A program made the translations under genes and the position numbers. From a virus (taxonomy: Duplodnaviria > Caudoviricetes): a DNA stretch of 24,261 bases. Shown here piece by piece: positions 4,998-23,181 of the stretch; positions within the stretch are counted from its first letter, which is position 1; every line of letters begins with the position of its first letter. The notes under the pieces are model-generated. The model did no database searches. It saw nothing but the letters and a program-made list of their open reading frames with translations, and was not told the origin of the DNA. The stretch is from IMG/VR virus record IMGVR_UViG_3300044676_000826, positions 1 through 24,261 of that record; one strand, given 5' to 3'.

Positions 4998-5149
4998 GCT
5001 ATTGCAGAGAATGTGATGGTACGGGCCGCATAGAGCGCCGCAGCTTTATGCAAACGCCTGATAGTGCAACATGGGAAACATGGACAGAACCTTGTCCTTA
5101 TTGCCAAGATGAAGATGATTATGATTGGCGCGGGGAGGATCAAGAATGA
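4994..5149 (+). CDS. Small zinc-finger protein with DnaJ-like CxxCxGxG repeat, 51 aa (not in ORF track)
   Basis: MSYCRECDGTGRIERRSFMQTPDSATWETWTEPCPYCQDEDDYDWRGEDQE*. ATGA overlaps on both sides. Confidence 0.8.
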   Translation: MSYCRECDGTGRIERRSFMQTPDSATWETWTEPCPYCQDEDDYDWRGEDQE

Positions 5150-5322
5150 CAAAAACAACATGGATTGCTCTAATGGTATTTTCATCGCCATATGAATGCG
5201 CAGAATTTATCGAAAAGTACAAAGCCAACCTATATGGCCCTGTGCAATGCGTTATTCAGCATGAAGAAACAAACACCGTGCGCCCCAAGCGCAAGCCAGA
5301 GCAAACAGATGCGCCACGTTGA
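5146..5322 (+). CDS. Hypothetical protein, 58 aa
   Basis: MTKTTWIALMVFSSPYECAEF..., with GGAGG SD and ATGA overlap. Start reassigned from 5125 to 5146. Confidence 0.7.
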   Translation: MTKTTWIALMVFSSPYECAEFIEKYKANLYGPVQCVIQHEETNTVRPKRKPEQTDAPR

Positions 5323-6166
5323 TTTGTGTTCTGGGATTGGCGGCTTTGCATTAGGCTTTGAGTGGGCGGGGTTAAGCACACCTGTGCTGTTCTGTGACAT
5401 TGAGCCGTGGAGCCGCCAAATATTACGCAAACATTGGCCTGATGTGCCGATTGCAGAAGATGTAAAGGAGTTAGCCAATGACCCAAATAGAAATGTTCCC
5501 GATTGCGACATCCTTACAGCAGGATACCCCTGCCAGCCCTTTTCACTTGCCGGGGAGCGCAGAGGCACAGAAGATGACAGACATATCTGGCCATACATAT
5601 TTTCCATTATTCAGGCCAAACGACCCGCTTGGTGCGTTTTCGAGAATGTTTATGGGCATGTCTCTATGGGCCTCGACGAAGTGTTATCTGACTTGGAACG
5701 TGAAGCCTACGCCACAAGGCCGTTCATTGTTCCAGCTTGCGCCGCAGACGCACCTCACAGAAGAGACAGAGTTTGGATCATCGCCAGAGATGTGGGCGAC
5801 ACCAGATGCGGCGGCAGGAAAGAGGGGAGGAACGCTGAAGAGAGGCAAACGCCCATCAGGTGCAAATCGTCAAGTGTCAATAAACGATCAGGTAAAGATG
5901 TGGCCGACCCCCACAGCGCACATCAGCAAAAAAGGGGCATATCCAGCCGAGTACAATCGCAACACAACAACGCTAACGGCAGAGGCGACAGCATCGGAAG
6001 GGAAGCCCCACAGTTCTGGCTCCCTGAACCCGCAGTGGGTAGAGTGGCTAATGGGATACCCAGAAGGGTGGACAGACTTAAAGGATTAGGTAACGCGATT
6101 GTGCCGCAGATTGCACAGCGCATAGGAGAAACAATTAAGGCTATAGAGGAGAACAACAATGGCTAA
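5309..6166 (+). CDS. DNA (cytosine-5) methyltransferase, large (alpha) subunit lacking motif IX
   Basis: Motif I DLCSGIGG, IV AGYPCQPFSLAG, VI FENV, VIII APHRRDRVWII, X LKGLGNAIVP. Start at MRHVDL (5309) places motif I at the N-terminus. Confidence 0.92.
   Translation: MRHVDLCSGIGGFALGFEWAGLSTPVLFCDIEPWSRQILRKHWPDVPIAEDVKELANDPNRNVPDCDILTAGYPCQPFSLAGERRGTEDDRHIWPYIFSIIQAKRPAWCVFENVYGHVSMGLDEVLSDLEREAYATRPFIVPACAADAPHRRDRVWIIARDVGDTRCGGRKEGRNAEERQTPIRCKSSSVNKRSGKDVADPHSAHQQKRGISSRVQSQHNNANGRGDSIGREAPQFWLPEPAVGRVANGIPRRVDRLKGLGNAIVPQIAQRIGETIKAIEENNNG
5478..6089 (+). CDS. Nested +1-frame methyltransferase small (beta) subunit, M.EcoHK31I-beta-like
   Basis: 203-aa stop-free frame inside the MTase gene. 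AAGGAG SD at 5465-5470, 7 nt before the ATG. Ends in motif IX-like LNPQWVEWLMGYPEGWT; two WxTP repeats. Confidence 0.8.
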   Translation: MTQIEMFPIATSLQQDTPASPFHLPGSAEAQKMTDISGHTYFPLFRPNDPLGAFSRMFMGMSLWASTKCYLTWNVKPTPQGRSLFQLAPQTHLTEETEFGSSPEMWATPDAAAGKRGGTLKRGKRPSGANRQVSINDQVKMWPTPTAHISKKGAYPAEYNRNTTTLTAEATASEGKPHSSGSLNPQWVEWLMGYPEGWTDLKD

Positions 6167-6787: not shown

Positions 6788-7156
6788 GTGGCCAACAGAA
6801 ACAGTATCGGACGTGCAGGCGAGTTTCTCGTCGCAGCCGAACTTGAGCAGCGCGGGATACGCTGCCATCGGGTAGATATGGAGGGTGATGACCTTTGGGT
6901 TAAGTCAGCCAACGGTGAGCTTGTCACTTTGCAGGTCAAGACAACCTTCAGGCCACGACCAGATCGCAAACGCCCACTGTACTACTCATTCACACGCGCC
7001 AATGGCGATGCGCAAATATTTGCGTATGTAGCTATGGATATACGTTTGTTTATACTGCGTGGCCCACCAACCGGCAAAACGGTACGCATAAAGCCTGCCG
7101 ATTTTACGCAGCAGGCTATGGATGACAGCATATTAAGATTTCTGGGTGGTTCGTGA
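6788..7156 (+). CDS. PD-(D/E)XK endonuclease-like protein
   Basis: GRAGEFLVAAEL...DDLWV...LQVKT pattern (E-D-QxK). GTG start without a strong SD. Confidence 0.78.
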   Translation: MANRNSIGRAGEFLVAAELEQRGIRCHRVDMEGDDLWVKSANGELVTLQVKTTFRPRPDRKRPLYYSFTRANGDAQIFAYVAMDIRLFILRGPPTGKTVRIKPADFTQQAMDDSILRFLGGS

Positions 7157-20565: not shown

Positions 20566-23181
20566 TTATGCACCATCATTGTTGAATGCAAAGCTTACTG
20601 CGTGACGTACAGCTACGTCTACAGTTTGCAGTGCAACAATCCGTACTGTGCCTGAGCTAGACGCAGTATATGGATCTACAACAATGTCCAAACCGCCATA
20701 CATGCCGATCAGCAAGTCAGCAAAGTTGCCGAAATACAGATCACCAGCAGTAACTTGGTTTGATACGATTGCATTGTAACCGTTCATTGATCCATCAGGA
20801 GCAACAACAAACTGGCCTGAACCACTGTCTTTTACAGTTGTTTTCAACGCACCGTACATGCTGGCAGGTAAGATATACGCCAAGTTTCCTTGCAGAGCGT
20901 TATCTTCTGCTACCGCAGTTTCCATCGCTACAACTTCAGGAAATGTTGGATTAACCCCAGCAAAGTTAGTTGGTGTGTTAATGCCAGATGTGTTTTTCAC
21001 ACCAGTAGGCTGACCAGATGATCCTGTTCCAGCCAATGCACCCAGATCAATCGCCAGAGCGATAGAAGCTGTCAGATCATTACGCACCAATGCTTCAACA
21101 TCCAAAGATGATTGCTGCATCATAAGGCGTGTAATGTCTGTATGAGCGCCAAGCACTTTCGGCGTCATGGTGACTTGACCAACAGTAGGCTCGCTTTCGC
21201 CAGATGCGCCACCCTCAGATGAAATCCAACCAGCAGATGATGCGGCTGTTTTCTTTGGGATCTTCACGTTGCCTGACAAGCCTGTCAGCATTGTTGCACC
21301 GGCTTGCATGACTGATGAAGCATTCCGCAATACGTCGATGAAATCGCCGCCACGGAAATCGTCAGCAATGATGCCAGCATCGTCAGTTGTATTCATGTCG
21401 CGCACTTTCCAGCTACGCAATACATCTGCTGGGATCATAATGCCTTGTGCTTCAACACCCATCGCGTCTGACGCAGCAGCAGCAGCTTCTAATTCAAAAG
21501 CAGCAGCTTTTTGTGCAGAGCGATCAGTTGGGTTTGCATGAGCGCGGATAGCGCGAAGCAATGAGAACTGACGGGCCTCTTTCGGGGCAAGTCCGATTTC
21601 ATTTGGCGTATCCAATGGTGCATTACCGATTACGTCCAGCAATTCACCGCGAAATTCTGCGAGTGAGCGGCCTTCTGATACGGCTTTGTCTGCCAAATCA
21701 CGCTTGTTGTGCTTTGCAGCCAAGCGATACATTTCAGCAGTATCTTTTGCGGCGGCGCGAGTAGCTTCGGCCTTAACCGCATCGATGTCGATCTTGTTTT
21801 CTTCCGACATGATAGTTTCCTCTCTAATAAGAGTTTCAGTGATAGGTTTTGCGGGTGGCTTCTCTGCTGCGCGGCCCACCCCGACTGTCCTGTCTGCGGG
21901 TATGCTCACAACTGATACTTCCATTGGAAGCCAAGACTTCACGCGGTAGCTATCCGCATCTTGACGCTCCATGTCGTTGACATGATAGCCAACGCTGATG
22001 TTGCTTCTGATACCATCCACAACATCGTCGAAAACCTCTTTGGCAAGCCCGTTTCTTCCGAAACGCACAGTCGCCCGTAATCTACGGGCCGAGCCATCAA
22101 GGCTTACGTCCTCTACCACACCAATCTGCTGGCGTGGGTCATGATCCAAGAGAAGCGGCATACGTCCTGACTTAGCAAAGCTAAGATCAATGCTGCGCTC
22201 ATCGTGATCTAATATTTCATTGCCAAAGCTGCGCTCTACTGGCTCTTCGCTGGATACAGCAATTCGCACAGTGCGCTTATCTTCGTCAACAACTTTACCG
22301 TCAAATGACATGCCGCGAGTTTCCATCTTCTCACGGTCAAGGCGCTCTTCATCATCGTAATGCTGAATGCGCTCATCATCTTCCTGAGTAGTCTGCATTT
22401 CTTCTGGCTGATCTTCACGATCAGGCTTTGCAAAAGTGACAGTATAAGCATCATCTGTCTCTTCCACGTTCAATATGTGACGCTCTTCCATCTCTGTTGA
22501 TCCTTTTAGTTCAAGACCGATAATATCATCTTTTGCCATATCTGCGCTACCCCTTTCATCGTTAGCCATTGGATGACCCTTTGGCAGAAGGTCAGTATCA
22601 TGCTTTCCGCTGCGATATTTGCCATTGCGCAGCGCATATAAGAAACTGTTTACGCGGGCATATGCCCACTGCTCAGGTGACTTCACGTTTGGTCTGACGC
22701 TCTGCGGGTTTGTCTTATAAGCGCCAACGCCACGACGAAACACTGCGCTCAATGTGCGGGTGCTGGTGCGCTTAGACGCAACATCACCAACTTTATCGTT
22801 GTGATCCTTGGCCTTCTTGGCCAAGCCCACCTTCACAGCGTCAGTCAGTTCAGGGGCGCGATCTTCCTTATCTAAACGCTCTGCAATCTGTCTGCTCCAC
22901 GAAAAACCCGCATCACCGCCCCAAAGCGCCCATGCAATACGGCCATTTGATGGATAACCCTTTTCGCCTACGCGAAACCCCTCAGCCTTCTTATCCACCT
23001 CATGGCGGCTAAAGAAGCTGTACATGCGCTTGACTGTATCGTCTGACAAATTCTTGCCATTGGATATGTCACGCGCTCTAGCAATGCCAACTTCAGTACC
23101 ACCACGCCCAAACTCACGCCGCCACTCTAGGCCGCGCTTCGCTTCTTCCACCATTCCATCAGTCGGCTTGTTCGACATCAT
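20566..23181 (-). CDS. Polyprotein: two N-terminal accessory domains + HK97-type prohead protease + scaffold + major capsid protein (871 aa)
   Basis: Protease motifs LLLDHD, ISVGY and EVSVVSIPAD. HK97-fold capsid motifs FIDVLRN..V, IPK, LMMQQS and YFGNFADL..G..GGLDIVVDPY. Confidence 0.92.
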   Translation of the reverse strand: MMSNKPTDGMVEEAKRGLEWRREFGRGGTEVGIARARDISNGKNLSDDTVKRMYSFFSRHEVDKKAEGFRVGEKGYPSNGRIAWALWGGDAGFSWSRQIAERLDKEDRAPELTDAVKVGLAKKAKDHNDKVGDVASKRTSTRTLSAVFRRGVGAYKTNPQSVRPNVKSPEQWAYARVNSFLYALRNGKYRSGKHDTDLLPKGHPMANDERGSADMAKDDIIGLELKGSTEMEERHILNVEETDDAYTVTFAKPDREDQPEEMQTTQEDDERIQHYDDEERLDREKMETRGMSFDGKVVDEDKRTVRIAVSSEEPVERSFGNEILDHDERSIDLSFAKSGRMPLLLDHDPRQQIGVVEDVSLDGSARRLRATVRFGRNGLAKEVFDDVVDGIRSNISVGYHVNDMERQDADSYRVKSWLPMEVSVVSIPADRTVGVGRAAEKPPAKPITETLIREETIMSEENKIDIDAVKAEATRAAAKDTAEMYRLAAKHNKRDLADKAVSEGRSLAEFRGELLDVIGNAPLDTPNEIGLAPKEARQFSLLRAIRAHANPTDRSAQKAAAFELEAAAAASDAMGVEAQGIMIPADVLRSWKVRDMNTTDDAGIIADDFRGGDFIDVLRNASSVMQAGATMLTGLSGNVKIPKKTAASSAGWISSEGGASGESEPTVGQVTMTPKVLGAHTDITRLMMQQSSLDVEALVRNDLTASIALAIDLGALAGTGSSGQPTGVKNTSGINTPTNFAGVNPTFPEVVAMETAVAEDNALQGNLAYILPASMYGALKTTVKDSGSGQFVVAPDGSMNGYNAIVSNQVTAGDLYFGNFADLLIGMYGGLDIVVDPYTASSSGTVRIVALQTVDVAVRHAVSFAFNNDGA

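Follow-up and report, generated by a model that had tools for sequence, protein, structure and literature searches.

A methyltransferase gene with a second frame nested inside it

The window analysed here, a contiguous stretch of 24,261 nucleotides, belongs to a tailed phage genome whose minus strand carries portal, capsid, tail and endolysin genes and whose left end carries primase-helicase, SSB and exonuclease genes; the sequencing runs in which most of its words occur are metagenomes from estuaries and freshwater. One minus-strand gene (20566–23181) encodes an 871-residue protease-capsid fusion, which has an additional region at its N-terminus (matches to phrog_2859 and DUF5824). On the plus strand, within a short block of small genes, lies alpha (5309–6166), a 285-residue protein that represents the catalytic body of a C5 methyltransferase and is built of motifs I to VIII, a filler, a linker and motif X. 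Residues 1–220 match PF00145 (E 1e-37), residues 1–159 align to M.HhaI, and the protein matches phrog_363 (E 1.6e-70). The catalytic Pro-Cys of motif IV (5528–5533) is located by the M.HhaI alignment and is invariant in our alignment A2, and motif X occupies 6086–6127; as the original prediction had it, this main frame carries motifs I–VIII plus X, without motif IX. The motif numbering in both chains is taken to follow the general consensus, anchored by the M.HhaI alignment.

Entirely nested in alpha is beta (5478–6089, plus strand), a 203-residue protein encoded by 612 nt in the +1 frame. Its Shine-Dalgarno sequence AAGGAG (5465–5470), 7 nt upstream of the ATG, is written into the alpha motif III codons GAT GTA AAG GAG, upstream the beta frame is closed by an in-frame TAG at 5472, and the calculated anti-SD pairing is −8.2 kcal/mol at the beta start vs. 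−2.1 at alpha’s own. The N-terminal half of beta (5478–5792) lies over alpha motifs IV–VIII, where synonymous change in alpha is reduced. It is followed by two WxTP cassettes, candidate DNA-recognition modules of 36 and 41 residues (5793–5900, with WATP at 5793, and 5901–6023, with WPTP at 5901), and by a motif IX-like stretch (6024–6074) over alpha’s conserved pre-X linker, where both frames are constrained. The beta stop TAG (6087–6089) falls within the opening Leu-Gly codons of alpha motif X. The nested frame with its ribosome-binding site, the paired WxTP repeats and the IX-like end just before motif X had all been called beforehand and were recovered at these positions. Motifs I–VIII with the catalytic Pro-Cys and ENV identify alpha as a C5 methyltransferase, and the remaining motifs are found across the two frames, X in alpha and the IX-like motif in beta, the latter assigned from the consensus and the structure model of a relative (P0133).

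Profile searches of both frames, suggested earlier as a check, place alpha in PF00145 and beta in phrog_1008, a family labelled DNA methyltransferase (E 2.1e-30), though beta alone gave no match in Pfam, NCBIfam or PDB, no confident AlphaFold fold (pLDDT 42) and, in the ESM Atlas, matches to viral clusters without names only. With the beta profile, 34,366 clusters are matched at an E threshold of 0.001 and 16,001 at 1e-10, both counts being of profile matches. The expectation that standard annotation would miss beta is borne out sometimes, as in C72C1, where not both CDSs are annotated, but phrog_1008 exists and several GenBank phages list both, among them Paenibacillus phage Tadhana and coliphages K1G and K1ind3; two features lie under the beta match in 25 of the 40 records listed among 74 phage records.

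Both frames are maintained across the overlap

To assess conservation in viruses, we used the best 80 of 283 loci retrieved with alpha as the sole query (L001 being the window). In all 80, beta is intact from an ATG or GTG at the same position through the IX-like motif; conservation of the frame and of the Shine-Dalgarno sequence had been suggested as a check, and both, like the start, are conserved. The beta stop is found at the same place in 80 of 81 sequences. Overlap statistics were computed on 68 unique overlap sequences, the window included. In every one of these the alpha codon at the beta start is AAT, AGT, GAT, GGT or TAT and is followed by G; since this codon varies five ways and the G is always there, the beta start is kept while the alpha residue changes. 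The +1 frame contains no stop in 14,259 overlap codons, vs. 295 in 3,798 upstream codons, and the +2 frame has 813 stops in the same 14,259, counts that overstate independence because the loci are phylogenetically related. Stops in the +1 frame of close homologues, which the original prediction had named as the observation that would speak against it, are thus absent. Given the alpha protein and the codon usage of the window, the probability of an open +1 frame is 1.6e-4 (1 of 20,000 random synonymous recodings).

Third-position variability is 0.51 and 0.61 outside the overlap, 0.24–0.36 over motifs IV–VIII and 0.11 over IX. At fourfold-degenerate codons where no stop is possible, synonymous variability is 0.63 outside the overlap (n = 12) vs. 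0.43 under the beta N-terminal half (n = 18; p 0.013, a generous value considering the relatedness of the loci), in line with the anticipated suppression of synonymous change, and drops to 0.04 under IX (n = 5). The same test with Val codons included (0.62 vs. 0.26) is inflated by stop avoidance, and their removal leaves a weaker effect over the N-terminal half. Amino acid variability over alpha codons 236–259 is 0.15 in the beta reading and 0.24 in alpha.

Furthermore, the best 80 of 577 GTDB loci retrieved with beta as the seed span many phyla at 30–51% identity and include five copies from one assembly; in all 80, beta is paired with an alpha ORF and lies +1 to it. Seventy were scored automatically as nested with motif X, and X is visible by inspection in nine of the other ten. 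A Roseovarius assembly is the source of the five copies (L111–L115), all of the same nested gene. In the RNA run X15, contigs came from relatives only. We conclude that both overlapping frames are open and under selection, that the dual coding is conserved, and that beta is almost certainly a real gene.

Motifs IX and X move between the chains

A third set comprised 80 loci, 73 of them parsable, and over motifs VI–VIII the +1 frame is open in 71 of the 73 and the +2 frame in two. Motif IX in these 73 more distant relatives lies in beta in 62 cases, in alpha in six, and is absent or cut in five. In the six with IX in alpha, the +1 frame still encodes the beta N-terminal half together with one cassette or more, and the same holds for mycobacteriophage ShiLan gp70, which has IX in its main chain. 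In four of the six (L209, L212, L215 and L230) an IX-like motif is found in alpha, no cassette is found there, and the cassettes are in beta; in mycobacteriophages Kampy and Vorrps, IX and X are both on the second chain. Since relatives with IX in alpha keep the nested ORF, we take the N-terminal half and the cassettes to be what the nested chain constantly carries, with IX and X moving between frames. The original view of IX as beta’s contribution therefore holds for the window, where the only IX-like motif is in beta, but does not extend to IX as constant cargo.

We also considered true single-chain ancestors. Fused database proteins, which might represent such forms, mostly lack motif X in one set, share their ends and differ in their junctions, as sequences with frameshift errors would. 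In L166, L168 and ShiLan gp70 the main chain seems to have every motif and the nested ORF persists; with a nested ORF present wherever the DNA was seen, the single-chain ancestor reading was dropped. At L104:2301–5604, alpha has some 1,100 codons and its ORF runs far beyond motif X, which suggests fusion to another domain.

Exchangeable cassettes over a hydrophilic filler

The 68 betas contain 145 cassettes, zero to four in each, of which 113 are distinct; they fall into 34 clusters and occur in mixed combinations. One beta (L016) has none by the pattern used. The cassette 1 type of the window is joined to different partner cassettes in L002, L003, L004 and L033. Five long betas (P0005, P0013, P0018, P0019 and P0049) are extended by a conserved insert or tail of roughly 100 residues, placed among the cassettes or after them, and some of the five have cassettes beyond the IX-like motif.

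Alpha residues 161–235 (5789–6013, plus strand), which lie over the cassettes and stand out by variability and composition, had been described as low-complexity R/G/S sequence. The enrichment in these residues is evident (37% vs. 20% elsewhere) and hydrophobic residues are depleted (19% vs. 45%), but the entropy of 3.74 vs. about 4.1 bits indicates only mildly low complexity, and ‘hydrophilic filler’ is the better description. Within the variable region the pattern is turned round: it is the beta wobble position that varies most, alpha varies more than the beta reading does, and selection follows the beta frame.

Among the relatives of P0100, 64 of 120 have motifs I–VIII, zero to four cassettes, IX and X in one chain, with the cassettes between VIII and IX; tandem exchangeable units in that interval are the mark of the multispecific type. 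The multispecific label is that of Bacillus phage methyltransferases, to which the TL-motif concept also belongs. The same interval holds the recognition domain of M.SssI and M.HhaI, as described in the available text of PMC3404938. A 34-column cassette profile gave no match to the recognition region of SPbeta MtbP, the sole such enzyme compared; a few PTL-type cassette variants are visible by eye among the relatives. In the model of P0133, one of these 64 relatives, which superposes on M.HhaI with Z 24.6 and rmsd 2.7 over 220 residues (range 1–320), the IX-like stretch has a pLDDT of 86–97 and the cassette region one below 50, and an alignment of fused relatives against solved methyltransferases matched these over motifs I–VIII only. 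Position, hypervariability and shuffling thus point to the cassettes as recognition modules, which homology and structure do not confirm, and we consider it somewhat probable that the cassettes set specificity.

A second clade with a nested frame

In 10 of 71 related phages a phrog_116 methyltransferase is encoded just downstream. Enzymes of this clade have IX and X in the main frame, yet they contain a nested +1 ORF of about 150 residues with its own AAGGAG (for example L288:2412–2867 within L288:2234–3376; further loci L318–L397). All 59 unique close relatives keep it open; the +2 frame is open in none of the 59. Homologues include the beta protein of pneumococcal phage MM1, a nested ORF in SpSL1 cds15 (L400:528–1610) and a stretch of P1 dmt (L399:1921–4185), where the open +1 stretch is shorter and starts after motif IV; the +1 ORFs in SpSL1 cds15 and P1 dmt carry no annotation. 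MM1 orf13 and orf14 (DQ113772), by contrast, are annotated as ‘C5 methyltransferase alpha/beta subunit’, with the nested +1 ORF starting near motif III. In vivo methylation of phage DNA has been reported for the SpSL1 enzyme, the site being given as RCGRC and RCRGC in paper and record.

The MM1/SpSL1 clade differs from the pair in the window in that its nested ORF, of about 140–150 residues, ends soon past motif VIII and has no WxTP cassette or IX, whereas in its alpha IX and X are retained along with PTL-type repeats. Searches of ten nested proteins of this clade with beta profiles gave no match (best E 0.048). As the clade keeps a nested ORF without cassettes or IX, a nested chain need not carry specificity.

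A recent insertion next to a small upstream gene

The methyltransferase lies in an inserted segment of approximately 5298–6142, delimited by the joints and empty sites of relatives: contigs from three of four runs join 5297 to 6143, 6147 or 6148. The insertion interrupts the 3' end of a small upstream gene (5146–5322, plus strand), whose stop overlaps the alpha start. In relatives with an empty site the C-terminal residues encoded by this gene are those with which alpha now terminates, and alpha’s last seven residues and stop, with the Shine-Dalgarno sequence of the next gene (6143–6166), are its former 3' end. A longer alpha, starting at 5192, was rejected on the same comparison, as empty-site relatives place that DNA in the upstream gene. 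Among 70 related loci with a full downstream gene, 53 have an empty site, two a nested methyltransferase (one being the window), eight other inserts, and one is too short. The nested methyltransferase is a recent accessory insertion, and the site, a hotspot, may serve to swap DNA-modification cassettes.

Across 80 methyltransferase loci we found no conserved neighbour, the largest family of flanking ORFs being present in 14 of 80, and with neither a conserved neighbour nor a linked cognate endonuclease the enzyme is best described as an orphan. The ORF at 6788–7156 (122 residues, phrog_5018), in which a PD-(D/E)XK-like motif can be seen by eye, was considered as a cognate endonuclease and set aside, as it occurs in 7 of 80 loci and also in relatives without the methyltransferase insertion. 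Six of the 70 related loci (L249, L251, L268, L301, L302 and L314) carry a TGT-like gene (phrog_887) and a Vut_1 transporter at the insertion site.

Discussion

We favour a model in which the two conserved overlapping-frame proteins are likely parts of one orphan cytosine-5 methyltransferase, with beta supplying motif IX and candidate recognition cassettes, and regard this composite picture, drawn from sequence comparison, as probable. That alpha and beta form one enzyme is a firmer proposition, which we hold to be very likely; their binding to each other is inferred from analogy and from the complementarity of their motifs. The closest analogue is M.EcoHK31I of E. coli (YGGCCR), described as having beta nested in alpha and requiring both chains (PMC2836561). 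As in that enzyme, the phage beta lies wholly inside alpha in another frame with its own start, and motifs I–VIII and X are in alpha and IX in beta. The available descriptions of M.EcoHK31I assign a predicted recognition domain to alpha and only motif IX to beta (PMC2836561, PMC3404938), whereas at the sequence level the variable region of the phage alpha appears as filler and the phage beta carries tandem, shuffled cassettes. The phage pair is, moreover, an orphan insertion; the comparison with M.EcoHK31I is with its published description. Of the M.EcoHK31I design originally proposed for this locus, the dual coding and the split of IX and X are strongly upheld by conservation. A recognition domain in alpha, as described for M.EcoHK31I, is not seen here at the sequence level, and the originally suggested role of the WxTP modules in specificity is plausible.

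In the mechanism that we envisage, ribosomes would initiate beta internally from its own Shine-Dalgarno sequence, and alpha would contribute SAM binding and the catalytic domain with motif X. The N-terminal half of beta would dock on alpha, substituting for a covalent link, and add IX and the cassettes as a small domain, in which each cassette would act as a target-recognition module contacting DNA, so that shuffling would change or broaden the set of methylated sites. Methylation would then shield the phage from host restriction enzymes, the role with which such phage methyltransferases are usually credited (PMC8637289, in its available text).

A different division of labour within one enzyme is conceivable, in which beta would be structural only, providing docking and IX, the cassettes would be flexible, non-specific DNA-binding loops, and specificity would be relaxed or reside in alpha. 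Such an arrangement matches the published account of M.EcoHK31I, as far as available (PMC2836561, PMC3404938), and would accommodate cassettes that lack homology to the one known recognition domain compared, that of SPbeta MtbP, that are modelled as disordered and whose copy number goes down to zero or one. We nevertheless judge it unlikely: the variable region of alpha amounts to filler and varies more than what beta reads from that DNA, cassettes of a given type stay conserved from phage to phage and are shuffled whole, and in four relatives beta alone has cassettes.

If beta instead had a separate or regulatory role, for example as an inhibitor or DNA-binding partner and not as a needed subunit, its persistence beside the seemingly complete main chains of L166, L168 and ShiLan gp70 would be readily understood. 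This seems improbable to us: the sole IX-like motif of the window is in beta, and IX moves between frames among relatives, as expected for parts of one enzyme.

The two-chain organization also recalls M.AquI and genes 6 and 7 of mycobacteriophage Corndog, a type that differs in having motif X on the small chain and only a partial overlap; the second ORFs of Kampy and Vorrps, of the Corndog type, contain LPTP cassettes and IX. For the overlapping Corndog pair, the accessible portion of Cresawn et al. 2015 leaves two products vs. a frameshift undecided, and database proteins running from alpha into the beta frame do exist, so that a single polypeptide, produced when ribosomes shift from alpha to the +1 frame, deserves mention. 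We regard it as very improbable here. Beta has its own conserved Shine-Dalgarno sequence and start, motifs IV–VIII and codons 236–259 are constrained in both frames, which one chain cannot explain and which makes a frameshift product unlikely, and most fused entries of one set, lacking motif X and differing in their junctions, resemble sequencing frameshifts. Some +1 residues are indeed forced by conserved alpha codons, but the notion that the +1 frame is merely their shadow, with no gene in it, can be set aside with near certainty given the low probability of an open frame, the lack of stops in the overlap, the conserved start, Shine-Dalgarno sequence and stop, and a +1 frame full of stops in SPbeta mtbP. 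The product of that gene has tandem exchangeable units of about 40 residues between VIII and IX, like the cassettes of the phage betas, and differs from them in being a single chain with no match to the WxTP profile.

To return to the favoured two-chain enzyme, the nested layout as such is already known. K1G, K1ind3 and Tadhana, whose pairs fall into phrog_363 plus phrog_1008, belong to the same clade and share the layout, with a nested +1 CDS, WPTP cassettes and an IX-like end; these pairs are known from annotation, and we found no functional study of them in the literature. PMC6070908 and PMC2884959, in the text available, merely list the genes, and in a literature search covering few subscription papers neither the cassettes nor the layout across the family came up as the subject of a paper. 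We see the pair in the window as a variant of this known layout, one in which recognition likely resides in the hidden chain.

More speculatively, beta may be a swappable multi-specificity subunit and the WxTP cassette a new kind of recognition module, with phages retuning their methylation through the shuffling of cassettes that have to remain open in both frames. A hidden +1 subunit beginning near motif III may likewise be standard in large clades of phage C5 methyltransferases (the 34,366 clusters matched by the beta profile and the second clade of MM1, SpSL1 and probably P1 dmt), so that many ‘single-chain’ enzymes would be two-chain. We advance this wider proposal, built from sequence patterns, as a tentative one that may well prove wrong.

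If it is true, an arrangement known from experiment as a single oddity would be the norm throughout a very large family of phage enzymes, and the choice of the DNA target would fall to a part encoded in a frame often dropped by gene callers. Alpha cloned or recoded alone would then give a dead enzyme, and the annotated protein would be insufficient to predict specificity. The natural shuffling of cassettes would offer a direct test of how phages keep pace with host restriction, and the cassettes themselves may be a source of modular methyltransferases.
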